Positions 10,399 through 30,671 of a DNA stretch of 64,000 nt are shown one piece after another. Origin of the DNA: Escherichia coli O127:H6 str. E2348/69 (GTDB lineage Bacteria > Pseudomonadota > Gammaproteobacteria > Enterobacterales > Enterobacteriaceae); the NCBI RefSeq assembly GCF_000026545.1, contig NC_011601.1; one strand, given 5' to 3'. The notes under the pieces are model-generated. The model was not told the DNA's origin. It saw only the letters and a program-made list of their open reading frames with translations, and made no database searches. The position numbers were made by a program, and so were the translations under genes. Positions within the stretch are counted from its first letter, which is position 1. Each line of letters starts with the position of its first letter.

Positions 10399-11805
10399 TT
10401 AATCCAGCCATTCAGTATGGAACACACCTTCTTTATCAATGCGCTTATAAGTATGCGCACCGAAATAGTCACGCTGTGCCTGGATCAGGTTCGCAGGCAG
10501 AACAGCGGCACGGTAGCTATCGTAATAGGCAACCGCAGCAGCGAAGGTCGGAACCGGGATACCGTTCTGTACTGCATAAGCAACGACATCACGCAGCGCC
10601 TGCTGGTAGTCATCGGCAATTTGCTTGAAGTACGGAGCCAGCAGCAGGTTAGCGATCTGCGGATTTTCGGCATAAGCATCGGTGATTTTCTGCAGGAACT
10701 GCGCACGGATAATGCAGCCAGCACGGAAAATCTTCGCGATTTCGCCGTAGTTCAGATCCCAGTTGTACTCTTCAGACGCCGCACGCAGCTGAGAGAAGCC
10801 CTGAGCGTAAGAAACGATTTTGCCCAGATACAGCGCACGACGAACTTTCTCGATGAACTCACCTTTGTCGCCAGCTGGCTGCGCTTGCGGGCCAGAGAGA
10901 ACTTTAGATGCGGCAACACGCTGCTCTTTCAGAGAAGAGATATAACGTGCAAACACAGACTCGGTAATCAGCGACAGCGGTTCGCCGAGATCCAGCGCGC
11001 TCTGGCTGGTCCATTTACCGGTACCTTTGTTAGCCGCTTCATCCAGGATCACATCAACCAGGTAGTTACCGTCTTCATCTTTTTTAGTGAAGATGTCTTT
11101 GGTGATGTCGATCAGGTAGCTGCTCAGTTCACCGTTATTCCACTCGGTAAAGGTCTGTGCCAGTTCTTCGTTAGAGAGATTCAGGCCACCTTTAAGCAGA
11201 GAATAGGCTTCAGCAATCAGCTGCATATCACCGTATTCAATACCGTTGTGAACCATCTTCACATAGTGACCTGCGCCATCGGCACCAATATAGGTAACGC
11301 ATGGCTCACCGTCTTCAGCTACTGCGGCGATTTTGGTCAGGATCGGAGCAACCAGTTCATAGGCTTCTTTCTGGCCACCAGGCATAATGGAAGGACCTTT
11401 CAGCGCGCCCTCTTCACCACCGGAAACACCGGTACCGATGAAGTTAAAGCCTTCGGCAGAAAGCTCACGGTTACGGCGAATGGTGTCCTGGAAGAATGTA
11501 TTACCACCATCAATGATGATGTCACCTTTATCGAGGTACGGCTTGATGGAATCAATAGCAGCATCCGTGCCAGCACCTGCTTTCACCATTAACAGGATGC
11601 GACGAGGCGTTTCCAGAGATTCAACAAACTCTTTCACCGTATAGTAAGGAACCAGTTTCTTGCCTGGATTTTCGGCAATCACTTCTTCCGTCTTTTCACG
11701 GGAACGGTTGAAAATAGAGACGGTATAACCACGGCTTTCGATGTTGAGCGCAAGGTTGCGCCCCATCACTGCCATACCGACTACGCCGATCTGTTGCTTT
11801 GACAT
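10399..11805 (-). CDS. gnd: 6-phosphogluconate dehydrogenase (decarboxylating)
   Basis: 468 aa [21 protein letters not shown]... Confidence 0.96.
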
Positions 11806-11925
11806 TGTTTACTCCTGTCAGGGGTGGTTACCGCCAAGTGTGCGGCTTGGATATGATGCAGATGTTAATATAAATACAGGTAAATCTCACATGTAATGTC
11901 AATGAGAATTGAAACAATGAAAACT

Positions 11926-12825
11926 CTACATTGCTATCCAGTTTTCATTTTTAAGAGAGCATTCATTTCCGGATATGTACCATTGTTTAGGCGCGATGAC
12001 TAGCTTATCTTCTGACCTGTTTAGCCATGCCCCCCACCAACTATATGTGCTGTTTGCAATAATATTATTATTACACAATGACATTAAATACATATCAATT
12101 ACACTAAATTTGTTTTCATCAGCATCAGCAACCAAGCAATTGCTATATTTTGAGAATTTTTCCTTTGCCCATATGACATCATCTGTAAAGATTATAAATG
12201 TCTGAGAGCCACATTCACTTTCAATGTATTCCATTGCACTAATATAATAATCCATACTTAGAGTGCCGTGAAATTTTGCAGCATGTTTATTATTTACATA
12301 ATCTCCACGTCGCACATGAATTGACGTTATATTCTTAGAGTCAGTAATTAAGGAATATATTTGTAGGTTATGACATAACACGCGAAGATCATCACGTATT
12401 TCAAAAAGGGGCAAAATTAAATCCCTATGTTCATTTAATAATTTAGAATCTTGGTAAAATGAGAATAGACACGCAACATCAATGTTTTTAATTGATTCCG
12501 GATTGTAATAAGAAGCATCATTTAATGAATATTTATTACACAGTTTAATTGCAGTGAACTGAAGAAAACTGTTAAGCAGTGGTATTTTTTTATGTTTCCT
12601 CAAACGATTTATTTTTACTTTTTCATCTTTAGAACTAAACCTATCAAAAATAATTTTAAATTGATCAAGCTCAAGATGTCGTATAGTATCTTTTTGAGGC
12701 TGGTTGAAATAATAACTATCATCAAGCACTAATATAGTATCAGGAAAATGTTGCTTAAGGATATAGGCTGCAGCATATTGGAACATTTGATTACCTAACC
12801 CACCGGATAGACAGCAATACATCAT
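11926..12825 (-). CDS. Alpha-1,2-fucosyltransferase (GT11 family); last gene of O-antigen cluster
   Basis: 299 aa; GT11 hallmarks GGLGNQMFQYA near N-terminus and HVRRGDY motif; very AT-rich DNA. Confidence 0.8.
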   Translation of the reverse strand: MMYCCLSGGLGNQMFQYAAAYILKQHFPDTILVLDDSYYFNQPQKDTIRHLELDQFKIIFDRFSSKDEKVKINRLRKHKKIPLLNSFLQFTAIKLCNKYSLNDASYYNPESIKNIDVACLFSFYQDSKLLNEHRDLILPLFEIRDDLRVLCHNLQIYSLITDSKNITSIHVRRGDYVNNKHAAKFHGTLSMDYYISAMEYIESECGSQTFIIFTDDVIWAKEKFSKYSNCLVADADENKFSVIDMYLMSLCNNNIIANSTYSWWGAWLNRSEDKLVIAPKQWYISGNECSLKNENWIAM

Positions 12826-12832
12826 TAAGTCC

Positions 12833-13570
12833 TTATTTAACTAATGCTTTAATAAAATGATATGTACAAGAAAGAAAACTCATTATACTTTTCTTTTTAA
12901 GAAATTCTCGCAAAGAATACCCAGCACATTCATAATATGCCAGTTTAGACTTCTGTGTTGAATTTGAGTGAACACGGTAATTTAACAAAGGCTCTTCCAT
13001 ATTATCCCAACGTGGTTTTAAGCTTCGCATTCTTAACCACAAATCATAATCTTCAGAGTTAAAACCACCATTATACCCTCTTGTTTTAAGAAACAAATCT
13101 TTTCTGAACATTATTGAAGGATGTGCGAAACAGTTTCGAAACATTATATATCTATTTATTAATTTTTGTCTGGGGTAAAGCCTTACACCTAAAAAACCAT
13201 CATTTTCATCAATTAGATTTATTGAGGTTCCAATTAAATCAAGTTCATTATCTATAAGATATTTAATTTGCTTTTGAAGTCGGTTAGGTAAGGCTATGTC
13301 ATCAGAATCCATCCTCGCGATGATATCATATTTAGCTTTGGATATTGCCAAATTTAAAGAAAAAGCCAATTGCCCTATATTGGTTTCAATAATATTAACA
13401 TTCTCTGTTTGTTTTATGTTATTTTTTAAGACACGGGCAATGTCACTGGCTTCATTGCCATTAGCAACAATTATTAACTCATATTTTTTATAAGTTTGAT
13501 TCAATATGCTATTTATCGCAGGCATTACATATGAATCATATTTATTTATACACATAATTACAGAAATCAT
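12833..13570 (-). CDS. GT2-family glycosyltransferase (O-unit)
   Basis: 245 aa; GT-A N-terminus and DSDD (DxD) motif; AT-rich. Confidence 0.75.
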   Translation of the reverse strand: MISVIMCINKYDSYVMPAINSILNQTYKKYELIIVANGNEASDIARVLKNNIKQTENVNIIETNIGQLAFSLNLAISKAKYDIIARMDSDDIALPNRLQKQIKYLIDNELDLIGTSINLIDENDGFLGVRLYPRQKLINRYIMFRNCFAHPSIMFRKDLFLKTRGYNGGFNSEDYDLWLRMRSLKPRWDNMEEPLLNYRVHSNSTQKSKLAYYECAGYSLREFLKKKSIMSFLSCTYHFIKALVK

Positions 13571-14737
13571 TTAAACATCTTCCTTTCTAGCGCATATAGT
13601 TTTTATAACCACTAAATATGAAAATATAAGCGGCAATATGAAAAATATCATATTTACAAAATTATTATACATCATCGCAAATATGCAGGCCATAATGACA
13701 AATGGTTGAAAAACAAATGCAAAAGGAGACGTATTTCGCTGTAAATATATTAATTGAATTATGAACCCAACCAAATAGGCATATATTACGCTGAATATAC
13801 CCAATGAAACATAAGCACTTCCTACAAAACCTATAGGTGAGGTAACATCTGGAAACTCCAAGCTAATTGGTGACGCTGGAATGATTTTTTGAGGTAAAAA
13901 CCAATTGAAGAAATAAAACACATCCTGTATATTATTTTGAATAACATAGTTAAAATTAACAACAGGTGAACCGAAATAAAAACCGCCAACAAATCTAAAT
14001 AAAAAATCAAAACTCAATGATAAATTTTGTTCAGGATTTCGAATTATGCGCGTAAATGAAAATAAAAAAATGACTACACCTCCTATTATAACTCCTTTAT
14101 TAATAGATATTCTCCGTCTGGAAAATAGCATCAAAGCTAATAAAACATATAATAAAGATTGCAATTTCGCATAACTAATAAATTTGATTATTATAACCAA
14201 TATACTTATAAAAACAATAGCTCGATTATCTTTTATCAAACGAGATATACCATACATAATAATACCAAAATAGCCCAACATTACAGATATTCCATGTATT
14301 CCCAGCGGAGATGAAGCAATCTGAGACTCTATTGTTTGAGCAGAGACACCACCGCTAATATATATATTATATATATTAGCTTCGTGCATGTAATACTGGG
14401 TTACAATTAAACTTATTACATTTGAATAAAAAACAAACTTTAATAACCCATTATAAAAAGAAAAGTTGTATAAGTAGTGGCTTCTATGGTTGCTATGTTT
14501 TTGATAATTAAATAAATACGCAAAAAAAGCCCCAAAAAGAAAAAACAAATAAAAAACTAAAGATATAAAAAACACCGTATAATCAGGTTTTTGATTAAAT
14601 ATAAAGAATGAATTCCATTCTTCTTCACTGGTATATAATTGAAAAAAAGTGTTTAAAACGATTGACATTAAAATTAATATAACGGGATTAAAGAAACGTC
14701 TAAAATCATTACTTTTTGGAATTGTTATCTGCATCAT
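13571..14737 (-). CDS. wzy: O-antigen polymerase
   Basis: 388 aa, highly hydrophobic multi-TM protein with no soluble-domain motifs; position between wzx and GT genes; AT-rich. Confidence 0.7.
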   Translation of the reverse strand: MMQITIPKSNDFRRFFNPVILILMSIVLNTFFQLYTSEEEWNSFFIFNQKPDYTVFFISLVFYLFFLFGAFFAYLFNYQKHSNHRSHYLYNFSFYNGLLKFVFYSNVISLIVTQYYMHEANIYNIYISGGVSAQTIESQIASSPLGIHGISVMLGYFGIIMYGISRLIKDNRAIVFISILVIIIKFISYAKLQSLLYVLLALMLFSRRRISINKGVIIGGVVIFLFSFTRIIRNPEQNLSLSFDFLFRFVGGFYFGSPVVNFNYVIQNNIQDVFYFFNWFLPQKIIPASPISLEFPDVTSPIGFVGSAYVSLGIFSVIYAYLVGFIIQLIYLQRNTSPFAFVFQPFVIMACIFAMMYNNFVNMIFFILPLIFSYLVVIKTICARKEDV

Positions 14738-14744
14738 CTTAATC

Positions 14745-15398
14745 TTATTCCGAGTCTGGATATTTAAATTCTGAAAGAATCAGTTCTAGTTCTTCATAAT
14801 CTTTTTCCCACCATTTCATTTTTTCCAACTTATTTCTTGTATCATCATTAAAACGATAATAAAGTACTTTACAAGGAACCCCTGCAGCAACAGCATAAGG
14901 AGGTATATTCTTAGTAACAACTGAGCCAGCCCCAATAATAGCGCCATTACCTACAGTTACTCCATCCAATATAACCGTATTCGCACCCAAACATACATCA
15001 TGACCAATCATAATTCTTTTGGTTTCTTCAAATGTATGCGAATCCGGAGGTGGACAGCTTTTAGAAAGCCAATGTATTGAATTTTTCCCATAACAGAATG
15101 GATGCGTCGATATATATTCCGACACAGGATGTTTACCTAATCCCATTTTCACACTTTCTGCAATAGAACAATACCGACCGATTGACGTGTTCAATATTGT
15201 ACAATTCCTCTGAATATAAGTATGACGTCCAATATTTGAATTATAAAGCAATGTATTGTTATACACTTTTATATTCTCCTCAAATGTTACATGCCTTATT
15301 CTCGCTCCGGGATAAACACTAACGCCTTGAAAACATAGAATAATGTTTTTAATTAAATAGCATATAGGTAACAGTATATATTCTTTTATTATATTCAT
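14745..15398 (-). CDS. Hexapeptide-repeat O-acetyltransferase
   Basis: Left-handed beta-helix repeats (IGHDVCLGANTVILDGVTVGNGAIIGAGSVV); ATG at 15398 overlaps wzx stop as ATGA; ORF track extends to a GTG at 15461. Confidence 0.7.
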   Translation of the reverse strand: MNIIKEYILLPICYLIKNIILCFQGVSVYPGARIRHVTFEENIKVYNNTLLYNSNIGRHTYIQRNCTILNTSIGRYCSIAESVKMGLGKHPVSEYISTHPFCYGKNSIHWLSKSCPPPDSHTFEETKRIMIGHDVCLGANTVILDGVTVGNGAIIGAGSVVTKNIPPYAVAAGVPCKVLYYRFNDDTRNKLEKMKWWEKDYEELELILSEFKYPDSE

Positions 15399-16666
15399 CT
15401 TGCTCTCATTAATAAAAATATTCCGCCAATTGAAAAAGATATACTTGCATATGCTATCCACATCATGCCGCCAATTGAAATAGAGTTATTTCCTTTCATG
15501 AAATGGAATAAAATAAACATGCTTAATGCAGAAATAATATTACTGAACAGTATAATTCCCCCTGCGTTTAATCGAACAAGGTTTGTATAGATAAATGTAT
15601 ATGGTATATTTATTAAAACTGAGAGGCAAATAAGAGCTAAAGCCCCCCCTCCATGATTAGCTATATAATGATTTCTTGTCCATAAATATAAAATATCAGA
15701 TGAAAATATTATTGTCAGACCAATAGGGAAAGCTAATACCAATAGCATAATTATCATTTTTTTTAACGATAGAACATTAAATATACTCTTTTCCCCTTGT
15801 GATGATAAAGCTGGTAACAATGACTTCATCAAAGGATATTGTAGCTGTAAAAAAGATAATCCCAGTTGTGCAACAATAACATATACTCCATATAACTGTG
15901 TTTCCACGTAGTGTGATAATAATATTTTATCTAACTGTGAAACAAACACACCAACAATCACACCAAATGAAAATATATAGTTCTCTTTAACCAAATCAAT
16001 TAATTGAATCAATATATTATTATCTATTAAGCCTTTAAGATCTATATTATTGCGAGTAATCCATAAAAAATTAAAAATAAATTCTATACAGGTAACCACT
16101 GCGAAGGAAACTATATATACTATAGGTTCTGGATTTACCATCAATGAAATCAGCGCGACACAATGTTTACATGAAAAAAAACACACTTGGCTTAAATTAG
16201 TATTAAATTGCTTTTGAGTACCATTCCAAAAACCTATATTGAGATTATTTGCAAATTGAAATAGGAATTGAATTGCAAGCAATCTTATACAAAACTCTAA
16301 CTCCCTACTGCTATGCCCTGCATTAAACCATCTAAATGCCAACCAACCAGCCGAACTGGTTAGAAAAACCGCCCCAACAAAAGCAACAGCAATATATATC
16401 CAAAAATATGCAAAAAATATGTTTTCTGGCGTATTCGTTTTAGCAATATCGCGAGGCATAATCTGCGAACACCCAGCATCCAGAATAAGTAACATAGCCT
16501 GGATACTTAAACAAGCAGAGACGATACCCCATCCATGGGGACCTAGTAGCTTGATATAAAAGGGTATAAGGACTATTATCCCCCCCCCCATCCAAATCAT
16601 ACCAATGTAATTAAACATTGTGTTTCGTAAGAATATATTATTTTTAAAAGAGGATATTATTGACAT
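15395..16666 (-). CDS. wzx: O-antigen flippase
   Basis: 423 aa polytopic membrane protein, position and hydrophobicity typical of Wzx; contains a G9 tract (plus-strand C9 at 16579-16587). Confidence 0.7.
   Translation of the reverse strand: MSIISSFKNNIFLRNTMFNYIGMIWMGGGIIVLIPFYIKLLGPHGWGIVSACLSIQAMLLILDAGCSQIMPRDIAKTNTPENIFFAYFWIYIAVAFVGAVFLTSSAGWLAFRWFNAGHSSRELEFCIRLLAIQFLFQFANNLNIGFWNGTQKQFNTNLSQVCFFSCKHCVALISLMVNPEPIVYIVSFAVVTCIEFIFNFLWITRNNIDLKGLIDNNILIQLIDLVKENYIFSFGVIVGVFVSQLDKILLSHYVETQLYGVYVIVAQLGLSFLQLQYPLMKSLLPALSSQGEKSIFNVLSLKKMIIMLLVLAFPIGLTIIFSSDILYLWTRNHYIANHGGGALALICLSVLINIPYTFIYTNLVRLNAGGIILFSNIISALSMFILFHFMKGNNSISIGGMMWIAYASISFSIGGIFLLMRAR
16579..16587. repeat. Homopolymeric C9/G9 tract inside wzx coding sequence
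   Basis: CCCCCCCCC on plus strand, encoding GGG (MIWMGGGIIVL) near the Wzx N-terminus. Confidence 0.9.
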
Positions 16667-16678
16667 ATAGATGTTTTT

Positions 16679-18052
16679 TTATTTTTCTTTTAATAAATTA
16701 ATAATAATTGCCGTATTATTTTCCATCACGAGCTGATCACCTCTTGATTCAACGTTCAAACGCACAACAGGTTCGGTGTTGGAGGAGCGCAGGTTAAAGC
16801 GCCAGTTGGCAAAGGCCATACTGATGCCATCGGTGCGATCCACCGCCAGCGCCTCACGGCTAAAATGCTGTTCCACGCGGTTAATCGCCTCAACGGGGTG
16901 CGTGAGTTTGCTGTTGATCTCACCACTTGCCGGAAAAGCCGCCATCCGGTCGCGCACCAGTTCGCCCAGCGTTTTCCCTTTCAGGCACACCAGTTCGGCG
17001 ACCAGCAGCCACGGGATCATGCCGCTGTCGCAGTAAGCGAAATCACGGAAGTAATGGTGGGCGCTCATTTCGCCACCGTAGATAGCGTCTTCCTTACGCA
17101 TACGTTCTTTAATAAAGGCGTGTCCGGTTTTCGACATTATTGGCGTACCGCCTGCGGCAGTCACCACATCAACGGTGTTCCAGGAGAGACGTGGATCGTG
17201 GATGATCTTCGCGCCGGGATTTTTTTCGAGGAACGCCTCTGCCAGCAAACCGACAATGTAGTAACCCTCAATAAACTGCCCTTTTTCGTCAAACAGGAAA
17301 CAGCGGTCAAAATCGCCATCAAAAGCAATGCCCATATCCGCGCCGTGTTTAATGACCGCATTGCGGGTGTCGTCGCGACATTCCGGCAGTAGCGGGTTAG
17401 GAATACCGTTGGGGAAATTGCCGTCCGGCGTGTTATGCACTTTGATTAACTCCACCGGTGCGCCGAGGGCTTTAAAGCGGGCTTCAATGGCGTCCACCAC
17501 CGGACCCGCCGCGCCGTTCCCGGAGTTAATCACCAGCTTGAGCGGCGTGAGGTTTTTGACGTTGATATAACCGAACAGGTGATCAACGTAAGCTTCACGC
17601 AGATTGATTTGCTGATAGCGACCGCGTTTGGTTTCATCGACGGGAGGGAAGTCGTTGGCTTCTGCCAGACGCTGGACATCGCGCAGTCCGGTATCACCGC
17701 TGATCGGGCGAGCCCCCTCGCGCACCAGCTTCATGCCGTTGTAATCCATCGGGTTATGGCTGGCAGTAACTTCGATGCCGCCATCCACGCCGAGATGGAA
17801 CGTAGCGAAATAGATCTCTTCGGTGCCGGACATGCCGATATCCAGCACATCGACGCCCGCATCCTGTAAACCTTTCGCCAGCGCCAGTTTTAAGGTTTCG
17901 CTGGTGAGGCGGACATCACCACCTAAAACAATAGTTTTCGGTTTGAGAAATTCGCCATAGGCACGCCCAATACGCCAGGCAATATCTTCATTCAGTTCTT
18001 CGCCTAATTTTCCGCGAATATCGTAGGCTTTAAAGCAGGTTAATTTTTTCAT
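16679..18052 (-). CDS. manB: Phosphomannomutase, O-antigen copy
   Basis: 457 aa [16 protein letters not shown]..., TASHNP active-site motif; near-identical to the colanic copy cpsG except for the last ~20 residues. Confidence 0.93.
16750..18052. repeat. manB direct repeat, copy A (O-antigen locus)
   Basis: Aligns with 33740-35042 at offset 16990, roughly 96 percent identity by eye; homology ends exactly at the ATG. Confidence 0.8.
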
Positions 18053-18055
18053 TTA

Positions 18056-19513
18056 TTAGTCATCTATTTTGTAACGTTCTTTTTGACGAACAATATCATC
18101 CTCACCTAAATAATCTCCTGAACTAACTTCAATAAGATTGAGAGGAATTATACCTGGATTTTCAAGGCTATAAGTAGCACCCAGAGGAATATAAACGGAT
18201 TCATTAGCAGTAACTAAGAAAGTTTTATTATTTAACGTTACTTTTGCTGTACCTGAAAGGACAATCCAATGCTCTGAACGATGATGATGCATACGTAAGG
18301 ATAGCCCTTCCCCTGGTTTAACGACAATCTTTTTGACCTTATATCGATCTCCCTGTTCTATAGCATCAAACTTTCCCCAAGGACGAAATTCCTCGCGATG
18401 TGATAGATATTCAGAACGTTCTTGCATTTTAAGCATTTGAACAATTTTCTTAACATCCTGAACTTCGGATTTTTTTGAAACTAGAATTGCATCTTTCGTC
18501 TGAACAATAACAATATCCTCCACACCTACAGCGGCTACTAAGGCTGACTCCGAATGAATATAATTATTTTTTGTATTATAAGTCAGGATATCACCTTTGC
18601 AAACGTCCCCTGTAGGAGTTTTATCACTAACGTCCCACAATGATTGCCAAGATCCAACATCGTTCCAACCAATATCAACGGGATAGACTATACAACGCTT
18701 TGTTTTTTCCATTACTGCAAAATCAATTGATTCCGATGGACAATTTTGAAAAACATCTTTCGAAAGTCGTATAAAATCAAGATCATGGTAGGACGAAGAA
18801 ACTGTTTTTTCACATATATCGTATATATCAGGTCTGTATTTTTTTAACTCCTCTAAATATACTGATGCTTTGAACATAAACATCCCACTATTCCAGAGAT
18901 ATTTACCTGAGGAGATATACTCTTCAGCCCTTGAGCGATTAGGTTTTTCAACAAATTGTTCCACGTGATAGAATGTATTACCAACTCCACGTTGTGATTC
19001 TTTAACTATACTCCCTTTTTCTATATAACCGTAACCAGTTTCTGCATAATCAGGAATAATACCAAATGTTAAAATATTTCCTTGTTCAACAATTGAAATG
19101 GAATTTTTAATAGCATTACAAAAAACATCTGTTTTGTTTATAACATGGTCAGCTGCAAGAACTAAAAGTATAGGATCTTGTTGTTCATTACGCTTTAAGG
19201 CTGTAAATGCTGAAAGTGCTATAGCTGGTGCAGTATTTCTTCCACATGGTTCAAGAATAATGTTATCGCTTAATTGGTTTATTTGACGCAATTGTTCTGC
19301 GACCACAAAACGATGCTGCTCGTTAGTTATTACTAATGGAGTTTCGCAAGAAAGCGGGGATAGTCGTAATAAAGTTGACTGTAATAAAGTATTCTCACCT
19401 GATAATTGCAGAAATTGCTTCGGATAGTGCTCTCTTGAGAGGGGCCAAAGACGGCTACCCGTACCACCAGCCATTACAACAGCAATCAACGGTACATCAG
19501 ACATTTTTGACAT
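18056..19513 (-). CDS. manC: Mannose-1-phosphate guanylyltransferase, O-antigen copy
   Basis: 485 aa; [11 protein letters not shown] motif; AT-rich and clearly diverged from the colanic copy cpsB. Confidence 0.9.
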
Positions 19514-20000
19514 CCTTTTTATCTAAACCAATAACAGCACTTGGATCATGATTAAAATAAGCTCGGCTGTTAGCGTGAACATTGTTACTGGCGAGCAGCG
19601 CGTCCGGCGTCAGCCAGCGGTAATCGTCATGCTGCTCATCCGGCAGTAACAGCTCTTCTTCCGCTACCCTGAAGCGAAAACCGAGCACCACATAGTGAGT
19701 GGTGAAATCCGTGCCGGAGAAGTTGTCGTCATAAAAGTGCTGCCAGACACCGTAAAACTGGCCTGCTGTTATCTGCAGACGCAGCCCCAGTTCCGCCATC
19801 GTCAGCCGCTCAAATGCGGCTTCCAGCGTTTCGTCTTTCTGCACGCGCCCTCCCGGCACAAACCAGTAACCCTGCGCCGGGCGGTTGGTTCTTTTGCCAA
19901 GCAGAAACTCGCCGCGACTGTTCTCGACAATAAAGTCGAGAGAGACAAGCGGAGTGGAGCGCACTACCGTGGCAAAGTCTTCCTGACGTAAAAACATCAT
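19497..20000 (-). CDS. gmm: GDP-mannose mannosyl hydrolase (Nudix), O-antigen copy
   Basis: 167 aa [13 protein letters not shown]...; Nudix box [23 protein letters not shown]; matches the colanic copy closely except for the C-terminal ~18 residues. Confidence 0.9.
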
Positions 20001-20965
20001 TACCCCCGAAAGCGGTCTTGATTCTCAAGGAACCACTGGTAAGTGCTGGCAAGCCCCGCTTCCAGTGAGATTTCGTGATACCAGCCAAGCTGATGCAGGC
20101 GCGTCACATCCAGCAGTTTGCGCGGCGTACCATCCGGTTTACTGGCATCAAAAACCACCCGACCTTTGTAACCCACCACTTTGGCGATGGTTTGCGCCAG
20201 TTCACGGATGGTGCAGTCAACGCCCGTGCCGACGTTAATGTGCGACAACATCGGCTGGGTGTTTTCCAGCCAGACTTCGTGCGCCAACTCCATCACATGA
20301 ATGCTTGCCGCCGCCATATCATCGACGTGCAGAAATTCGCGCATCGGTGTACCGCTGCCCCACACCACCACGTCCGGTGCATTCTGTGCCGTCGCCTCGT
20401 GGAAGCGACGCAGCAATGCAGGTATCACATGGGAGTTACTCGGGTGGAAGTTGTCATGCGGCCCGTACAGGTTGGTCGGCATGACTGAGCGGTAATCGCG
20501 TCCGTACTGGCGATTGTAAGATTCGCACAGTTTGATCCCGGCGATTTTGGCAATAGCATAAGGCTCGTTAGTCGGCTCCAGCGTGCCCTTCAACAGCTCG
20601 CTTTCTGCCATCGGCTGTTTTGCCAGTTTCGGGTAGATACAGGACGATCCAAGAAACAGCAGTTTGTTCACGTCGTTCTGATGCGCGGCGTGAATGATGT
20701 TGCTCTCAATCATCATGTTCTGGTAGATGAAATCCGCCGGATAGGTGTTGTTGGCAACAATGCCGCCCACTTTCGCCGCCGCCAGATAGACCTGGTCAAT
20801 GCGTTCGCTGGCAAAGAAATCATGCACCGCGCGGCTGTCCAGCAGGTTCAGCTCGTCGCGGGTGCGTAATACCAGTTCCACATCACCGCGCTGTTCGAGC
20901 TGCCGCCTGATGGCAGAACCGACCATTCCGCGATGGCCAGCGATAAAAATGCGTTGTCTACTCAT
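20000..20965 (-). CDS. fcl: GDP-L-fucose synthase, O-antigen copy
   Basis: 321 aa; protein identical to the colanic copy at 38376-39341. Confidence 0.95.
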
Positions 20966-20967
20966 GC

Positions 20968-22089
20968 TTATGACTCCAGCGCGATCGCCACGTCGTAGCC
21001 GTGAGATTTCAGCAGAGAGTGTTTTTTCGCCGCTTCGAGGTCATTAGCCACCATTTCAGACACCATCTCTCTGAGGGTGATTTCCGGTTTCCAGCCCAGT
21101 TTTTCGTGCGCTTTGGTCGGGTCGCCGAGCAGCGTTTCAACTTCAGCCGGACGGAAGTAGCGCGGATCAACCTTAACGATTACATCTCCAGGTTTAACTG
21201 CTGGAGCATCCTCACCATTAACAGAAACCACTATCCCCTTCTCATCTACACCTGTGCCTTCAAAACGCAGTTTGATTCCGACTCGCTCCGCCGCCATTTC
21301 CACGAACTGACGCACGGAGTACTGAACGCCGGTCGCGATGACGAAATCTTCCGGCTGTTCCTGTTGCAGCATCATCCACTGCATTTTTACGTAGTCTTTG
21401 GCATGGCCCCAGTCACGCAGGGAATCCATATTGCCGAGGTACAGGCACGATTCCAGCCCCTGGGCGATGTTTGCGATTGCGCGGGTGATTTTGCGGGTAA
21501 CGAAGGTTTCGCCGCGGCGCGGGGATTCATGGTTGAAGAGAATACCGTTACAGGCGTACATGCCGTAGGATTCGCGGTAGTTAACGGTGATCCAGTAGGC
21601 ATACAGTTTGGCGACCGCATACGGAGAGCGTGGGTAGAACGGCGTGGTTTCTTTCTGCGGAATTTCCTGCACCAGACCGTACAGTTCAGAAGTGGAAGCC
21701 TGATAAAAACGGGTTTTCTTTTCCAGACCGAGGAAGCGGATCGCCTCCAGCAGGCGCAGCGTACCCATCGCATCGACGTCAGCGGTATATTCCGGTGACT
21801 CAAAAGAAACCGCAACGTGACTCATTGCGCCCAGGTTGTACACTTCATCCGGCTGCACTTCACACAAAATGCGCGTCAGGTTGGAGGTATCTGTCAGATC
21901 GCCATAATGCAGATGGAATTTCGGGTTGCAGGTGTGCGGATCCTGATAAATGTGATCCACGCGCTCGGTGTTGAATGACGATGCACGACGCTTAATACCA
22001 TGCACCTCGTAACCTTTTTCCAGCAGAAACTCTGCCAGGTAAGAACCGTCTTGTCCGGTTATGCCAGTAATGAGAGCGACTTTAGCCAT
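20968..22089 (-). CDS. gmd: GDP-mannose 4,6-dehydratase, O-antigen copy
   Basis: ATG at 22089 gives [18 protein letters not shown]...; ORF track begins at an upstream TTG (22119). Confidence 0.93.
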
Positions 22090-22115
22090 TTTACATTTCC
22101 TGTTCTTAAAAATAC

Positions 22116-23132
22116 TCAACCTAAAATAATGCTTTTATATGCTGAAGCATAGTTCTCGATAACAAATTTCCCGGAGGCACGAATTGCCTGTTCCCGATAA
22201 TTTTCATAGTCATCGAATATTTTATCCAATTTATATCCAATGTCGTCTTCAGTATTTTCCACAAGTAACCCATTACCCTCAATTAATTCAAAACATCCGC
22301 CCACATCACTTAACAGGAGTGGTATTGCAGCTGTGTGAGCCTCAAGGCCTGACATAGGCAAACCTTCACTATCGGATATCAGTGAAAATAAATCATACTC
22401 ATGATAGTTATAAAAATTATTGACCTCACCCAAAAAATGAATATTTTCACATTCACTGAATTGTTTCTTCAATGATTCTAACCTTTCCCCCCCTCCTACG
22501 ATATGGAGGCTATACTGGGGCTTTTTCGATATTACATTCGCTAACAACTCGGGGCGCTTAGGGTGTGTTAACCTACCAACAAACAGAACCTTATACTGGA
22601 GTTGTTTATTATTACATCTCGGCATCTGAGGCACTGAATTCGATACTGTGATTATCTTTGGTTCTTTTATACCAATATTCTCAATTGCCTTTTTTTCATC
22701 ACTTTTGGAAACACACCATATAACATCAGTTAATAAAGAAAGGTATTTTTCCACAATGCAAAAAATTGATTTTAGGCGACCACCATTATATAAACAAGAC
22801 CATCCATGCGAAACATAAATACATTTAAAGTCGACTAGTAATCGAACTAACCTGGCATAAACTCCGGCATTAGCAGAACTTGCTATTAACGTTGAAATGT
22901 TATTTTCTTTTAAAATTTTTCTCAATTTAAACAATGTAAGGAAGTCAAAATATTTTTTAATACCTGGTATGACAAAAACTCCGGCAAAGACATCTTTATG
23001 TGTGAGCCATCCTTCTTCAGATGTAATAAGAAATATATTACATTCCTCTTTAATAAGGTTAGATATTTCATTTACCCATGTTTGTGCACCACCAATTTCT
23101 GATTTTGTAACAATAAAACCAACATTTTTCAT
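22116..23132 (-). CDS. GT4-family glycosyltransferase (O-unit)
   Basis: 338 aa; GT-B fold features and a C-terminal EX7E-like region; AT-rich. Confidence 0.7.
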
Positions 23133-23150
23133 ATATCAAAATTCCAAAAA

Positions 23151-24170
23151 TTATTTTTTATATCCATTTGGATTGTTTGTTTGCCAACGCCATACATCTT
23201 CGATCATTTCTTTCAATTTTTTTTCCGCTTTCCAGGAAAGCTTTTTATGTGCTAAATCAGCAGACGCCCATGACTCCGCAACATCCCCCTCACGTCTATT
23301 ACAAATAGCAACAGGTATACTCTTTTTAGTGACTATCTCAAACATTTTTACAATCTCTAAAACAGAATAACCTTGACCAGTGCCTAAATTAAAAGCTTCA
23401 TAATTGACATCATTTAAAAACATATATTCTAATGCTTTAACATGCCCTTTAGCCAAATCACAGACATGTATATAGTCTCTTACTCCTGTACCATCTTTAG
23501 TTGGATAATCGTTGCCATAAATATTTAATACAGGAAGTTGATTTTGTGCAACTTTAGATATATAAGGAACCAGATTATTAGGAATCCCGTTAGGATTTTC
23601 ACCAATCATCCCGGACTTATGTGCTCCGATTGGATTAAAGTAACGCAGTGCAATTACTGATTTATTATTATCACTATCACAATAATCACTCAAAATTATT
23701 TCTATTATAAATTTCGATGTCCCATATGGGTTTGTAGTTTCACCAATTCGTCTATCTTCCGTATGGGGAGGGATACTGTTATTCCCATAAACAGTAGCAG
23801 AAGAGCTAAATATCATTTTATTAATGTTATATCTCTTCATGCATTCAAGTAATACTAAAGTTCCACCAACATTATTAGAATAATACTCTAAGGGCTTTAA
23901 CTTAGACTCACCTACAGATTTTAACGATGCAAAGTGAATTACAGCATCGATATGGTGTCTTGAAAAAATCTCATCAAGTAGATTTTTATCACGGATATCA
24001 CCTTGATAAGAAATAATTTTCTTATTAGTTATTTGCTCTACTCTTTTTAATGATTCTATAGAGGAATTGACAAAATTATCTATCGAAACGACATCATGAC
24101 CATTATTAAGTAACTCAAGTATGGTATGGGATCCAATATATCCTGCACCGCCTGTTACGAAAATCACCAT
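23151..24170 (-). CDS. UDP-hexose 4-epimerase (GalE/Gne-like); first gene of O-antigen cluster
   Basis: ATG at 24170 gives MVIFVTGGAGYIGSH...; YGTSK catalytic motif; ORF track extends upstream to a TTG at 24239. Confidence 0.85.
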   Translation of the reverse strand: MVIFVTGGAGYIGSHTILELLNNGHDVVSIDNFVNSSIESLKRVEQITNKKIISYQGDIRDKNLLDEIFSRHHIDAVIHFASLKSVGESKLKPLEYYSNNVGGTLVLLECMKRYNINKMIFSSSATVYGNNSIPPHTEDRRIGETTNPYGTSKFIIEIILSDYCDSDNNKSVIALRYFNPIGAHKSGMIGENPNGIPNNLVPYISKVAQNQLPVLNIYGNDYPTKDGTGVRDYIHVCDLAKGHVKALEYMFLNDVNYEAFNLGTGQGYSVLEIVKMFEIVTKKSIPVAICNRREGDVAESWASADLAHKKLSWKAEKKLKEMIEDVWRWQTNNPNGYKK

Positions 24171-24199
24171 ATAAACCTCCTTTACCATGAGGATTGAGA

Positions 24200-24245
24200 G
24201 AAAAACACACGCTACCGCCCTTGGCTTAACAGTTACCAACTCACT
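24200..24245 (-). promoter_or_regulatory. JUMPstart region with ops element (RfaH-dependent antitermination) in O-antigen operon leader
   Basis: Plus-strand CACGCTACCGCC at 24208-24219 is the reverse complement of the ops consensus GGCGGTAGCGTG; lies between galF and the first O-antigen gene. Confidence 0.8.
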
Positions 24246-24479
24246 GAAAATGAATCATAGGTACTAAGCATTTAATACTTTTCACTATTTTCCAATTGTC
24301 TAACCAAACGAAGTCAGATACAAGGAAAATCTATGTCCGAGCGATACTTGCGGTAACTTATTGTTATTAAATACTTTAAATAAAAGACAGGAACATTCTT
24401 ATAATGTAAGCATCTCTGCTTTTGAATGTTCACTGCCGTTCTATTTTTATTCAATCCACCATATATGGATGATTAATTT

Positions 24480-25373
24480 TTATTCGCTTAACAGCTTCTC
24501 AATCCCTTTACGGAACTTCGCCCCTTCTTTCAGGTTGCGTAGTCCATACTTCACAAACGCCTGCATATAACCCATTTTTTTACCGCAGTCGTAGCTGTCG
24601 CCGGTCATCAGCATGGCATCAACGGACTGTTTTTTCGCCAGCTCGGCAATGGCATCAGTCAGCTGAATACGTCCCCATGCACCAGGCTGAGTACGTTCAA
24701 GTTCCGGCCAAATATCGGCAGAAAGCACATAGCGACCAACGGCCATGATGTCTGAGTCCAGCGTCTGCGGCTGATCCGGCTTTTCGATGAATTCAACAAT
24801 GCGGCTGACTTTACCTTCACGATCCAGTGGTTCTTTTGTCTGAATGACTGAGTATTCAGAGAGCTCACCCGGCATACGTTTTGCCAGCACCTGGCTGCGT
24901 CCCGTTTCATTGAAGCGCGCAATCATGGCAGCAAGGTTGTAGCGTAGCGGGTCGGCGCTGGCGTCGTCGATCACAACGTCTGGCAGCACCACGACAAATG
25001 GATTGTCACCAATGGCAGGTCGCGCACATAAAATGGAGTGGCCTAAACCTAAAGGTTCACCCTGACGCACGTTCATAATGGTCACGCCCGGCGGACAGAT
25101 AGATTGTACTTCCGCCAGTAGTTGACGCTTCACGCGCTGTTCAAGGAGAGATTCTAATTCATAAGAGGTGTCGAAGTGGTTTTCGACCGCGTTCTTGGAC
25201 GCATGAGTTACCAGGAGGATTTCTTTGATCCCTGCAGCCACAATCTCGTCAACAATGTACTGAATCATTGGCTTGTCGACGATCGGTAGCATCTCTTTGG
25301 GTATCGCCTTAGTGGCAGGCAACATATGCATCCCAAGACCCGCTACCGGTATAACTGCTTTTAAATTCGTCAT
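24480..25373 (-). CDS. galF: UTP-glucose-1-phosphate uridylyltransferase paralogue
   Basis: 297 aa [43 protein letters not shown]... Confidence 0.95.
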
Positions 25374-25615
25374 TATTTTCCTACCTCTAAGTGGCTGATA
25401 GTGCGTAAATTATTGCCATAGGTTAGCCAAACGGTATGGCTATATACCATAGCTTAGTTCCGCATAACTTTGATTAAACCTTACGATAACACTACACACC
25501 ATCAGCATCTGGGTTACTCGGATTACTCGGAAATCCACATACTGATAATTTAATCAGTACCTCTTTCCGAATAATCGTAGTCCAACCTGGTCCTTTTTTC
25601 TCTGACTCGTCTGCA

Positions 25616-26611
25616 TTACTCAGAAACAAACGTTATGTCGTCTTTTTTGGCATGAACGAATTCATACTGCAGAGTTCGATCCAGACCTTGCGACAGCGTA
25701 TACGGTGCCACAAAACCTGAAGAATGCACTTTCGTTGCGTCAAACTGTGTTGTTGCGCAGAATTTTTTCACGCGCACAGAGCTGACAGCGTATTTTTTGC
25801 CAGTAATTTTGCTCAGGATATCAAAGCAATATCCACCCAGCATTCCTAGTGGGTAAGGCAAGTGCATAGAAGGGATCTTTTTGTTTAGGCTTTGTTCAAC
25901 TTCAGCAACCAACTGGTTCATATTCAGGTCTGGCTTATCAACGTAGTTATAAACCTCGTAACCTGCGGCAACATTCTTCAGTTTGTACTTGATAAACTCA
26001 ACAATGTTTCCAACATAAGCCATGGACTTATAGTTAGTCCCTGCGCCCACCATCATAAACTTGCCGCCAGCGATCTGTTTCAGCAAGTTATAGACGTTAC
26101 CGCGGTTCCGTTCACCGAAGATAACGGTAGGACGGATGATGGTTAATGAACGTTCTGTTGGTGCTTTGTTATACCATTCACGCAGCACTTCCTCTGCCTG
26201 CCACTTACTTTTGCCGTAGTGGTTGAAAGGATCGTGTGGATGGTTTTCGTCAGGGTTGTGTTTGTTCAAACCATAAACAGCAACGGAACTGGTAAAGATG
26301 ATATTTTTAACGCCATTTTTTTCCATGGCCGCCAGCACATTGCGGGTACCCTGAACGTTGACATCATAATAGAGAGAAGTAGGGCTGACGTCATCGCGGT
26401 GTTCCGCTGCCAGTAGTACAACAGTGTCAAAACCGGCTAACGCCTGGTCGAGTGCCTGTTGATCACGAACATCGCCAATCTGTGTGATTTCTGGATAAAA
26501 GTGGCTCTGCTGTTTGTCCAGGTTCTTGATATTAAAGTCAGCAATTGCCGTTTCAAGTAGTCGGGTTCCTACGAATCCGGAAGCTCCTATGAGCAAAACG
26601 TTATCGTTCAT
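25616..26611 (-). CDS. gne: NAD-dependent epimerase (Gne / Z3206-like UDP-GlcNAc or GlcNAc-P-P-Und 4-epimerase)
   Basis: 331 aa MNDNVLLIGASGFVGTRLLE...; YGKSK motif; sits between wcaM and galF, where some E. coli lineages carry gne. Confidence 0.8.
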   Translation of the reverse strand: MNDNVLLIGASGFVGTRLLETAIADFNIKNLDKQQSHFYPEITQIGDVRDQQALDQALAGFDTVVLLAAEHRDDVSPTSLYYDVNVQGTRNVLAAMEKNGVKNIIFTSSVAVYGLNKHNPDENHPHDPFNHYGKSKWQAEEVLREWYNKAPTERSLTIIRPTVIFGERNRGNVYNLLKQIAGGKFMMVGAGTNYKSMAYVGNIVEFIKYKLKNVAAGYEVYNYVDKPDLNMNQLVAEVEQSLNKKIPSMHLPYPLGMLGGYCFDILSKITGKKYAVSSVRVKKFCATTQFDATKVHSSGFVAPYTLSQGLDRTLQYEFVHAKKDDITFVSE

Positions 26612-26768
26612 AAATCACTTTAGTCTGGTTGTTACGTAAGAAACACAAGATAAAGATGAGTACCTTCCCTGAGTAGTCAATGCTGCCCAGCCCCAGCTTT
26701 AACAGTTAGTGTGAGGATTATAATCTTTTAGAACATTATATCCAGTAAGTTTATGAATGGTCGCAAAT

Positions 26769-28163
26769 CTACTCCCTCCGTTCTGGCAATCTAAAGTTAA
26801 TCTTTTCCACATTAACAATGTGGTGATTAACTCTGTCGATATCGACGGAGCTTTGCCCTTTTTCATTCACCGCATGAACATTTGCAAGTGACAGCAGTGT
26901 TTCTTTTTTCGCCATAAAGACGCCGCGAACGTCTTTGCGCATGTCGAAGTTCATGCTCAATGCGGGTCCAACTGAGGATTCCTGCATCACCTTGATATTT
27001 CGCATAAAAAGATGTTGCGGTTTGTTGTGTAACTCCAGCGACGCACGCTTCATCTCAATGTTAGTCAGCGCCACAAAGGAGACAGCATTCCCGGCAGAGA
27101 TTTGGATACCGCGCAATTTATAAGCAAGATGGGTGTTATCCATTTGAATATTATTCACTCGGAAATTTTGCGGTATTGAGAGATATTTGCCTTTAATTAC
27201 CCCATAGCCGATTAACATCCCAGCGCTATTAATCATTTCAATATTATCAATCACGAAATTGTCACAACCGTAAATAGCAACTGTCGCGTTATCAATGCCT
27301 GCTTTCTTGCTGAAATCCGGCGTGATATTGCGGGCTTTGATATTACGAATAACAAAATGTTTACCATTTTCAACATGGATCAACTGCCGACAATCCGATC
27401 CCGTGATATTCGCCACGACAAAGTTTTTCACTGCCTGGTCTTCCGGGTAGTTATTATCGTAGGTACTTCCCGCAAGGCCTATGCCGATACCCCAGTTGAT
27501 TTTGCCGTTGGTACAGTTGATGCGCTCGATGACATGGTCAGATATCAAAATATCACGGTCGTTAATCGCCACGTTCCATTCAATGGCGTCGCCCTGTAAA
27601 TCACTAAATTTACAGTTGGTGATGTTGGCACCGATAATCTGGTTATGAAATCCCTGGCGTAAGATGGCGTAATTAGCGTGGCTAACGGTCAGGTTATCGA
27701 TGGAGAGGTTACGCATTACTCGTTTGTTTTTGCCGCCGATATAAATCTGCGTTACCGGACCAAAGCCGCTCATCGTCAGCCCTTTGATGGTGCAGTCAGA
27801 GCCACGCACATCCAGGGTGATGTTATGCATACTGCCACCCTCCTCCCCTGTCACCTGGCTGCTGTCCTGTAAGACAAATCGCCCTCTGCCGTTGCCGCGC
27901 AGGCTTCCAAGGATGTGTAACGTTTTACCTGCAGGAATGAAGATGCCGGTGTTGATATTGTCGCAAACCAATCCGGCAGGCACGACGACCGTTTGCCCTT
28001 CGCCGAAGGCTTGTTTAAATGAGGCGATCCAGTCGTGTGGGTTGTAGTCGTTAATGTTAACGCTTTGTCGGGCGGGAAGTGCACGGGCGAAAGGGGTATG
28101 GAGGAAGGCAAGCGCGGAGCTTGCCGTCAGGAAGGTGCGTCGGGAGAGTTTTTTAAATGGCAT
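26769..28163 (-). CDS. wcaM: Colanic acid biosynthesis protein WcaM
   Basis: 464 aa with twin-arginine signal ([15 protein letters not shown]); last gene of colanic operon. Confidence 0.9.
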
Positions 28164-28173
28164 ACGTTCTCCT

Positions 28174-29394
28174 CTATAAAGCCTGCAGCAAGCTGGCGAG
28201 TTCTCGATTAATCACCTGCTGGTTAAAATCGTGTTCGACTTTTTCGCGCGCACGTTTGACGACCGGAGCCAGTTCGTCGGTGTTCAGTTGGCTAAACGCC
28301 GCCAGTCGTTGCGCCAGTGCGCGAGCATCGTTCTCAGGCACCAGCCAGCCGGATTTATCGGCCTCCACCAGTTCTGGTATTCCGCTATGCAGAGTTGAAA
28401 CAACCGGAATGCCGACCGCCATCGCTTCCATTAGCGCCACCGGAATACCTTCCATATCGCCATCCGCACCCGTTATCGATGGCAACAGGAAGACATCCGC
28501 GTCGTCGAGCATCGCTTTCACTTCATGGCTCGGTTTAAAGCCCGGCATCTCTACCACATCTTCCAGTTGATATTGTTCGATGAGCGTGCGCAGGCGTCGT
28601 TCCCACGGGCCAATGCCGAGGATGCGATAGCGAAATGCCACGCCCTGCTCTTTCAACTGCCGGCAGGCTTCGATCGCCACATGCAGGCCTTTTTTCTCGG
28701 TTAAGCGTGCGACGGAGATGATTTCCAGCGGCGTTGCGGGCGCTTTCACCGGACGCGGGCTAAAGCGCGTCATGTCCACGCCCATACGCGATACGGCGAT
28801 TTTTTCCCTCGGACAGCCCATTTTTTGCAGCCTTCCGGCCCACAAATCGCTTATCGGTAACATCAGGTCGCCACGGCGAAACAGTTGTTGATATTCGGGA
28901 GTGTAGTGGTTGAGCACGTCCCGACTGGAGATATCAATACCGTGGAAGATAGTGGCAATTTTGCCGCGAATGACACCCAGTTCGCGTAGTTTTGCTGCGG
29001 TTACCCCCGCAGGGCCAAAATGAGCGATGAACACATCGGCGCGAAACGGTGTTGCGACCTGACCACAAATGGCAGACAAAATCAGGTTCCGCGACTCGGC
29101 GCCATAGCGTTTGAGGTTGAGCGCCTGCCAGGTATTTTTACGATGAATGCCGCGTAACGTCTGGCTGGCGCGGTGGCGCAGTTTCGCCACTTTGCCCGTA
29201 GGTTCGTCCTGTAACCAGCGGGTTCTGGCAGCAAGGTTGTATTTCGTCCATGCCGCGTGGGTGTTCTGGGTGTCGCCTTTTTGCAGCGCGACAATCTCCA
29301 CCTCAAAGCCCATATCAATAAACGCGGTAATTTGATTGAGGACGAAGGTTTCCGACGACAGCGGAAATTTCAGTAAAAAGAAGCCGACCTTCAT
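28174..29394 (-). CDS. wcaL: Colanic acid glycosyltransferase (GT4)
   Basis: 406 aa; position and family match. Confidence 0.9.
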
Positions 29395-30671
29395 TTCACC
29401 TCCCCGATGCGTTCAAGCACAGATTGCACCATCTGCATTCCTGTATGACGCTCACGACTGACAGCTTCGTTAAGTCGTGCGTTCAGCGCCGGAAGCTGGC
29501 CTAAGGTATCCGCAACCATCGCTTGCAGGCTGCCGTCCAGTAAATGACGGATATCAATTGCCATCTCTGGTAGCCCCAGTTGTTGCATAATCCCGGCGGA
29601 TTTATGTTCATAGTTGATGGCAATCGCCGGAGTAGCAAAGTTCATTGAGATAATGGCTGAGTGCAGGCGCGTACCGACGGTGAGTTCACAGGCACCGAGA
29701 ATTTTGCCCATTTCCAGATCGTTGAGTTCATCCATCACCACGTGGTAACGGGCAGGATCGCTGATGTGCTGGCGCAGGTTGAGCGCCACCATGCGGTCGT
29801 CTTTGTTATAGCTGTCGATGCCCGTACAGGTGGAGAGCGCAATAACCTGATAGCCTTCGTCGAGAATGCGATTGACCACCCCGGCAAAGGCTTTTTCATA
29901 CGCTTGTTGAGTGGTGCCGAGACGTTTGTCGAACGGTGCCAGTTCGCGCAGGGTAATTGCCACCGTTTTCTGTTGTGCGGCAACGTCCAGCCAATGTTGA
30001 ACGGCATAGCTGGCGGTGAAGTCTTCTGTGTGGTGATCGACCAGCCACGCGGTATCGACGCCATGTTCCACTTTTGCGGTGGTGATATTGCTGCGTTTCA
30101 TCAAATCAAGGCTGACCGATTCGCGCAGGATCAGCGCGTCACAGTGACCAAAAACGTAGTTCGCCAGTTGGTTAAATTGCTCATCCTGGAACGGGCCGAC
30201 GCTGTGACCAATCATAAACAGCGGCTTTTTCGCCATGAAAGTGCAAAGCGCATGTTCAAACTGCGGAACGCCATAGAGATCGACAAAAAACGATCCGCCG
30301 ACCTGAATAATGGCGTCGTAACCTGACAGCAGGCGCACGAAGTCGGTGAATCCCTGGGCGATGGCGATATTACGCAGCTTGCCAGTGTCGGTGACGCGTG
30401 AGAGCAATACCTGGTGCTGATAGCGGCGACGGAGGACTTTTTTAACGCGCCCGACAACGCCCGCCGCGCTGTTGTGTTGTTTCATTTGCAGGAACAGCGG
30501 ATCGCCCATTACCGGGCGGTTGAGCAGCCAGGAAGAACTGACCGGATAGCGGCTCATCACGTCCACTTCGGCATGTGGATTGAGGATGTTGATGGCATCA
30601 AGTAAGCCGCGCAAGATGGCGCTGTCGCCACGATTGCCGCAAGTGTGGTTGCCCAGAATAAGTAATTTCAT
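29391..30671 (-). CDS. wcaK: Colanic acid pyruvyl transferase
   Basis: 426 aa; position and family match. Confidence 0.9.
   Translation of the reverse strand: MKLLILGNHTCGNRGDSAILRGLLDAINILNPHAEVDVMSRYPVSSSWLLNRPVMGDPLFLQMKQHNSAAGVVGRVKKVLRRRYQHQVLLSRVTDTGKLRNIAIAQGFTDFVRLLSGYDAIIQVGGSFFVDLYGVPQFEHALCTFMAKKPLFMIGHSVGPFQDEQFNQLANYVFGHCDALILRESVSLDLMKRSNITTAKVEHGVDTAWLVDHHTEDFTASYAVQHWLDVAAQQKTVAITLRELAPFDKRLGTTQQAYEKAFAGVVNRILDEGYQVIALSTCTGIDSYNKDDRMVALNLRQHISDPARYHVVMDELNDLEMGKILGACELTVGTRLHSAIISMNFATPAIAINYEHKSAGIMQQLGLPEMAIDIRHLLDGSLQAMVADTLGQLPALNARLNEAVSRERHTGMQMVQSVLERIGEVK

Follow-up and report, generated by a model that had tools for sequence, protein, structure and literature searches.

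Evidence for Two-Way Gene Conversion, and a Deletion, Between the Duplicated gmd-fcl-gmm Genes of the O-Antigen and Colanic Acid Loci in Escherichia coli E2348/69

Duplicated gmd-fcl-gmm Genes in the O-Antigen and Colanic Acid Loci

The analyzed stretch of DNA, referred to below as the window, comprises 64,000 nucleotides of Escherichia coli O127:H6 str. E2348/69 (NC_011601.1) and contains both the O-antigen and the colanic acid (CA) loci, each with its own set of the GDP-L-fucose pathway genes gmd, fcl, and gmm; the exchange and loss of DNA between these two sets is the subject of this study. On the minus strand, the gene order is gnd, the O127 genes, manB-manC-gmm-fcl-gmd, the gene of a wbnH-type glycosyltransferase, a galE-type epimerase gene, the ops leader, galF, and gnu/gne, followed by wcaM through wcaI, the second gmm-fcl-gmd set, and wcaF through wza. 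According to the ungapped comparison and the repeat search, the two sets form a pair of direct repeats, 19554-22089 and 37930-40465, of 2,536 bp with 64 mismatches and an offset of 18,376 bp, and identity at this offset is only ~25% beyond the repeat limits.

19554-22089, minus strand: O-antigen-locus copy of the repeat, comprising the last 447 nt of gmm (19497-20000), fcl (20000-20965), and gmd (20968-22089)
37930-40465, minus strand: CA-locus copy of the repeat, with gmm (37894-38376), fcl (38376-39341), and gmd (39344-40465), as in the RefSeq annotation of identical DNA in Z1323HEC0011
19647-21159 (equal to 38023-39535): identical core of 1,513 bp, haplotype X
21160-21289 (versus 39536-39665), minus strand: divergent patch in the O-locus gmd, with 37 mismatches in 130 bp and nine codons changed; right limit of the core

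Rightward from the core, which has no mismatches in 1,513 bp, there are 37 mismatches in the 130 bp of the patch and then 23 in the 800 bp up to the gmd ATG, and to the left of the core there are four, at 19560, 19563, 19583, and 19646. The left limit of homology lies 57 nt within the 3' end of the O-locus gmm, and the right one coincides with the annotated gmd ATG (22089). The alignment thus agrees with the initial annotation, made from the sequence alone, in that the core is identical base for base, in direct orientation and with 18,376-bp spacing, rather than broken up by the scattered synonymous differences named there as the contrary outcome. The limits of homology given there, from the gmm 3' end to the gmd start, are also right, except that homology begins at 19554 and not at 19560.

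At the protein level, the two Fcl copies have no differences, as had been claimed; the Gmd copies differ in 13 residues, nine of them inside the patch, and the Gmm copies differ internally at residues 119 and 140 and are divergent throughout from residue 150. All these proteins exceed the curated NCBIfam cut-offs of the respective families, namely, Gmd (TIGR01472, 590.8 bits, cut-off 415), Fcl (NF047922, 551.9, cut-off 500), and GDP-mannose mannosyl hydrolase Gmm (NF011963, 315 and 323 bits, cut-off 146). The mechanically derived open reading frame of the O-locus gmd reaches TTG at 22119 (20968-22119, 383 aa); the ATG at 22089 (373 aa) is favored because of homology with the CA copy and the RefSeq annotation.

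Identity of the Core and Gene Conversion

In genomes with the same flanks, the core differs between copies at 36-49 sites, versus none in the window, the probability of zero differences by chance being about e^-36. Thus, in CM2010-0578/1, the O copy is that of the window (one mismatch in 2,536 bp), and in its own CA copy there are differences at 36 sites of the core; in the O128 strain 504239, the CA copy is that of the window (one core mismatch), and the O copy differs from it at 42 sites and from X at 43. A second O127 lineage (MB22, EcPF16, KFu022, S1, 23AR0998) differs from the window core at 42-43 sites. Haplotype X at an identity of at least 99.9% occurs in only 11 out of 5,426 complete E. 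coli genomes, and every one of these has an O-locus copy.

These comparisons support the view that the 1,513-bp identity arose by ectopic gene conversion between the two loci. The identical tract stands far above the divergence of the flanking paralogous sequence and has discrete ends; the pre-conversion sequence is kept by lineages with the same flanks (MB30 and ET665 at the CA locus, 88COLEC at the O locus); and the exchange was non-reciprocal, both copies holding the donor alleles (34 out of 34 on the left, nine out of nine on the right) with no swap. Since sister genomes still hold the unconverted state at each locus, the conversion should be recent, which bears out the suggestion in the initial annotation, although the history appears to be more complex than one event.

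The identity might also have been explained without any exchange, by purifying selection on Fcl or by a very recent duplication of the CA genes into the O cluster, and it is true that the Fcl proteins are identical and that the genes encode conserved, housekeeping-type enzymes. However, synonymous sites are identical as well, yet the 36-49 differences seen in sister genomes are mostly silent, and the O copy is old, its locus-specific patch and ends being common to the O86, O127, and O128 clusters. This explanation is refuted by the sister-genome comparison, and we assign it practically no weight.

The Core as a Chimera of Two Lineages

MB30 and ET665, retrieved by the search with wcaI-cpsB, have no O-locus copy and are nearly identical to the window over 25500-40000, with the exception of 36 mismatches, all of them confined to 38044-38972 (19668-20596 in the O-locus coordinates). 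As strains without the O-locus GDP-fucose genes, proposed for comparison in the initial annotation, they show the CA block in the unconverted state. At 34 out of these 36 sites, the O copy of 88COLEC is identical to X; conversely, differences between X and the O copy of 88COLEC are found at nine sites (20639-20958), and at every one of the nine the CA copy of MB30 coincides with X. Hence X matches the O-locus sister 34:0 on the left and the CA-locus sister 0:9 on the right (Fisher p=1.8e-9). Judged by these alleles, the core is a chimera of an O-locus lineage (left) and a CA-locus lineage (right), and sequence would therefore have moved both ways, in at least two steps.

19647-20596: O-locus-lineage part of the core; putative O-to-CA conversion tract in the CA copy (38023-38972)
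20597-20638: chimera junction, with no informative site inside
20639-21159: CA-locus-lineage part of the core; putative CA-to-O conversion tract in the O copy

As to the mechanism, the two paralogous gmd-fcl-gmm sets, being in direct orientation, would recombine ectopically via homologous recombination, and non-crossover exchange, that is, gene conversion, would have made the 1,513 bp identical; both conversion and deletion (see below) presumably depend on RecA. The simplest history has two steps. The older one would be an O-to-CA tract of at least 929 bp (19668-20596), inherited also by the CA copies of six O128 strains, and the younger one, a CA-to-O tract covering at least 20639-20958 and perhaps the whole core, common to E2348/69, Z1323HEC0011, and CM2010; the sequences suggest this order, O-to-CA first and CA-to-O later.

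On the left, the identical run stops at a single difference at 19646, ~90 bp from the end of homology. At the equivalent position 38022, MB30 and ET665 natively carry the same T as E2348/69; therefore this T marks the left edge of the putative O-to-CA tract in E2348/69, and its origin as a post-conversion mutation is ruled out. Unequal sister-chromatid exchange and a reciprocal double crossover were also considered as origins of the chimera and rejected, because they would yield a reciprocal hybrid or a swap and not two identical copies.

A single one-way conversion would be sufficient if the CA block natively carried X, the O copy had been overwritten once in the CA-to-O direction, and the MB30/ET665 tract were an unrelated import. 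This scenario agrees with the presence of X at the CA locus of six O128 strains with unrelated O copies, with the CA-to-O direction of the clear example in S1-NGR-02-A described below, and with the closeness of the X-like middle part to the CA haplotype of many CA-only strains (2014C-3307 type, 99.0%). At the same time, all five examined CA-only genomes with the wcaI-cpsB flank (MB30, ET665, EC488, IBS28, and, more loosely, with 30 flank mismatches, 3036) are without the left part of X, and the restriction of X at this identity to genomes having an O-locus copy is not what a native CA haplotype would lead one to expect. Moreover, the right end of the MB30 tract (20596) meets the place at which agreement of the 88COLEC O copy with X is lost (20639), which is predicted by the chimera and would be a coincidence in the case of import. 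We consider a single one-way conversion unlikely. No close CA-only relative of the E2348/69 CA 5' region that could serve to polarize the changes was found, the best match to the 5' half of the CA cluster (40466-45600) outside the E2348/69 lineage being 98.5%.

Alternatively, the two opposite tracts abutting at 20597-20638 may be the trans-heteroduplex arms of one double-strand-break repair event; this reading, which was assessed jointly with the off-switch role discussed below, is a tentative one, and the odds are against it. There are no Chi sites inside the repeat, the nearest one being at 19464 on the minus strand, 90 bp to the left of the repeat.

Recurrent Conversion and the Divergent Patch

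Compared with its sister 504239, the O copy of the O128 strain S1-NGR-02-A has 23 contiguous differing sites (19784-20456), and at all 23 it coincides with its own CA copy, which clearly points to an independent, clean CA-to-O tract of 673-729 bp. In 11 O-locus versus 19 CA-locus copies, 45 sites have fixed differences, of which the patch accounts for 34; two of the others are at the left end, and nine lie to the right of the patch. Among these 30 copies no fixed difference between the loci was found from 19564 to 21171, and at the population level the core therefore shows concerted evolution.

All 11 O-locus copies (O86, O127, O128) have the patch, whose GC content at the third codon positions (GC3) is 0.34 in the O copy versus 0.59 in the CA copy. 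It resembles a relic of a low-GC ancestral O-locus gmd, the last stretch left unconverted, and its 28% divergence is the likely reason why the identical tract ends at 21159. A scan for its origin with a codon-degenerate pattern in one genome per species yielded no match.

Deletion Between the Repeats in an E2348/69 Stock

The search with the O copy in another genome of E2348/69, NZ_CP059840.2, yields a single repeat place, 99.1% identical to the O copy, and both flanks match the window with 100% identity, one at offset 0 and the other at 18,376. The annotation at the fusion is manC-gmm-fcl-gmd-wcaF, the inter-repeat genes are absent, and gmd is a hybrid with the O alleles through 21340 and the CA alleles from 21451.

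21341-21450 (pairs with 39717-39826): crossover interval of the NZ_CP059840.2 deletion, a 110-bp identical run

Thus, NZ_CP059840.2 carries an exact 18,376-bp deletion between the repeats: one spacing is lost, one hybrid repeat is left, and the junction lies inside the homology. This is the outcome expected from a crossover between the copies, which would remove exactly one repeat spacing (18,376 bp) and leave an in-frame hybrid gmd beside wcaF, and it is the 18.4-kb deletion for which the initial annotation had named the repeat as a substrate.

At 4,944,462 bp, NZ_CP059840.2 has the same length as the Unicycler assembly described by Tvedte et al. (2021; PMC8495745), who, in comparison with the published genome, found ~18 kbp to be deleted and validated this by long- and short-read mapping, polymerase chain reaction (PCR) across the junction, and Sanger sequencing; the matching assembly length and extent identify the two deletions as the same event. 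The lost genes were described there only as CA genes and no mechanism was given, neither "gmd" nor "recombination" occurring in the main text; here we add the repeat, the interval of the crossover, and the finding that O-antigen genes are lost as well.

These data also bear on whether the copies are truly identical and the duplication and deletion real, or whether they result from assembly or polishing. A perfect 1.5-kb repeat is longer than short reads, and short-read ambiguity caused by it is plausible: ambiguous short-read mapping of the same genes has been described for Salmonella O13 (PMC8550085). However, the independent assemblies LT827011.1, LT903847.1, and Z1323HEC0011 (South Korea) have both copies at 100% with the 18,376-bp spacing, long reads, short reads, PCR across the junction, and Sanger sequencing all confirm the E2348/69 deletion (PMC8495745), and its junction lies outside the perfect repeat, which argues against collapse. 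For E2348/69, an artifact is largely refuted, and overall we consider it very improbable.

Fusions in Other Genomes

A query spanning the fused junction was searched against complete genomes, yielding three further fused genomes with one place versus 200 genomes with two places; for the two-copy genomes, the search listed one place per record, and within-genome identity refers to the examined genomes only. The three are isolate 3702594 (O86), E41 (O128, pig), and OkiPb01675 (O128, bovine); in their assemblies, they have the same fusion as the E2348/69 stock. In isolate 3702594 the switch lies between 21341 and 21819, as in E2348/69, and the hybrid Gmd is the same (WP_021519822.1); in E41, it lies just before the patch, and in OkiPb01675, near the left end. 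The four fused genomes therefore show at least three crossover intervals, with assembly collapse possible for 3702594, E41, and OkiPb01675, and the fusions in the one O86 and two O128 genomes are apparently independent of the E2348/69 event. Fusion carriers account for about 2% of complete genomes with such architecture (4/~204) and represent three serogroups.

The E2348/69 and O86 3702594 fusions both cross just right of the patch, at ~97-99% identity, and not in the long perfect tract. The fused copy of OkiPb01675 (10452-12985 in that genome) is of the CA type from 19563 onward; in its segment equivalent to 20651-21159, 30-37 sites differ from every other examined copy, and there is a 2-bp gap near the fcl-gmd junction.

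Taken as a whole, bidirectional conversion and crossover deletion between the gmd-fcl-gmm paralogs are, in our view, a highly probable explanation of these data. Several observations weigh against it. The direction of the left tract assumes that MB30 and ET665 represent the ancestral CA block, and their tract could be a later import. At position 20596/38972, both copies of E2348/69 and the O copy of 88COLEC have G, and the CA copies of MB30 and of the six O128 strains, the latter with otherwise the same core, have A; whatever the order of events, an additional step is required. The E2348/69 crossover occurred in a 110-bp identical run amid ~97-99% identical DNA and not in the adjacent 1,513-bp perfect tract, which is against a simple length-proportional model. 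Finally, the fusions in isolate 3702594, E41, and OkiPb01675 rest on assemblies, in which collapse is possible.

Comparison With Known Systems

Events of this kind are already known, and the gmd-fcl-gmm case adds a well-documented instance. In the O14 type strain, a deletion by manB-manB recombination between the O-antigen and CA clusters has been reported (Jensen and Reeves, 2004, as cited in PMC7685785). Insofar as that deletion is described in the citing paper, it involved the same two loci and direct repeats of GDP-sugar genes, with everything in between lost and normal O antigen abolished. Unlike in O14, here gmd-fcl-gmm and not manB recombine, and O127, O86, and O128 are the serogroups concerned; the 3' O-antigen genes are retained and become fused to the CA operon, and the manB/cpsG pair in the window is only 93.8% identical.

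For the O157 clusters, gene conversion of manB/cpsG has been described (Samuel et al.; Iguchi et al., 2011, PMC3158064), and the likeness lies in intragenomic conversion between the O-antigen and CA copies of a GDP-mannose pathway gene, deduced from mosaic sequence. Here, however, the tract covers three genes, transfer is demonstrable both ways, and both pre-conversion states are extant in other genomes.

More generally, bacterial multigene families such as rrn and tuf undergo concerted evolution by gene conversion; this subject was reportedly reviewed by Santoyo and Romero in 2005. The homogenized core with divergent edges refractory to conversion resembles these families. In contrast to them, the paralogs studied here belong to two polysaccharide operons that differ in regulation, and since one of these operons is horizontally mobile, conversion mixes lineages of different strains.

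In the literature, incompletely covered, we found no earlier report that names gmd-fcl-gmm as the E2348/69 deletion substrate or describes the two-way chimera or the repeated occurrence in O86 and O128, and, with the same incomplete coverage, nothing on a gmd-gmd deletion or a rough E2348/69 variant beyond Tvedte et al.

Predicted Consequences of the Deletion

The deleted interval contains the following features.

22090-37929: inter-repeat DNA with the wbnH homolog, galE-type epimerase gene, O-operon leader, galF, gnu/gne, wcaM, wcaL, wcaK, wzxC, wcaJ, cpsG, cpsB, and wcaI, as in the annotation of identical DNA
22116-23132, minus strand: GT4 glycosyltransferase nearly identical to WbnH (PDB 4XYW, E=5.9e-229, 338/338 residues)
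23151-24170, minus strand: galE-type (GalE-family) epimerase gene, an O-antigen gene
24212-24219, minus strand: ops element GGCGGTAG between galF and the O operon, in the O-operon leader

The O-antigen functions lost are thus the WbnH-type transferase, the GalE-family epimerase, the GlcNAc-PP-Und 4-epimerase (according to the annotation), galF, and the ops leader, and the CA genes lost are wcaM through wcaI together with cpsB and cpsG. The initial annotation correctly placed galF, gne, and the wca and cps genes between the repeats and missed the galE-type epimerase and wbnH-type genes; likewise, the loss of CA genes that it foresaw is real, and the consequences were understated, since O-antigen genes and the O-operon leader also go. 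A second ops element (GGCGGTAG) is located upstream of wza, at 49663 on the minus strand.

WbnH is an alpha-1,3-GalNAc transferase adding the second sugar of the O unit (PMC4506291), and the O127 unit contains the same GalNAc-alpha-1,3-GalNAc (PMC7685785). With these O-antigen functions and the O-operon leader gone, the stock carrying the deletion should lack the O127 antigen and the O-antigen-based group 4 capsule, as well as CA, and the O genes that remain would be transcribed from the CA promoter. E2348/69 is the reference enteropathogenic E. coli (EPEC) strain, and a sequenced stock of it has lost 18.4 kb through the repeat; the predicted loss, if true, would change the outcome of work on resistance to serum or defensin, on sensitivity to phages, and on type III secretion access.

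The duplicated gmd-fcl-gmm module may even act as a recurrent one-step off switch, selected repeatedly in nature and in culture; as in the case of the single repair event, with which it was assessed jointly, we regard this as a rather doubtful possibility. If it is true, one crossover ends O antigen, the O-antigen capsule, and CA together and places the remaining O genes under the CA promoter, and a circulating stock of the reference EPEC strain is rough.

For fucose-containing O clusters (O86, O127, O128), these observations amount to a built-in deletion substrate and to sequence exchange with the resident CA genes. The exchange makes phylogenies of gmd, fcl, and gmm and their typing from short reads less clear and explains why these genes form GC-rich islands in low-GC O clusters. 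In practice, this is relevant to users of E2348/69 and to the typing of such clusters.

Composition and Mosaic Origin of the Locus

Over its O-specific part (11900-16700), the window shows 100% identity to O127:H6 assemblies and E2348/69, and wzx and wzy are annotated there as O90/O127. The GC content is ~0.30 in the O cluster versus 0.53-0.57 in the gmd-fcl-gmm segment, and GC3 is 0.23-0.28 (manC, wzx, and two 5' O genes) versus 0.59-0.67 (gmm, fcl, and gmd). Like the gmd-fcl-gmm segment, most of manB (0.53-0.55 over 17000-18000) has the high GC content of the CA cluster.

As a whole, 10000-45600 is a mosaic of blocks common to different genomes: 10000-17500 is common to the other O127 lineage, 17500-24500 to the O86 strain 88COLEC, and ~24000-40000 to six O128 strains. 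Z1323HEC0011, which has another genomic background, is identical to the window over 10000-40000; since it shares at least 30 kb including both identical copies, the conversion is older than that block transfer.

The manB and cpsG genes form a second, weaker direct repeat, of the substrate type of the O14 deletion; the DNA of manC and that of cpsB are essentially unrelated.

16721-18052, minus strand (versus 33711-35042): manB versus cpsG, 93.8% identical over 1,332 bp, longest identical run 77 bp, offset 16,990

In CM2010-0578/1, there are frameshifts in wzx, wzy, and galE, reflecting decay or assembly errors. In the O127 strain MB22, the IS5-like element ISKpn26 (18035-19015 of its locus) interrupts the wbnH homolog, which is another route to O-antigen loss.

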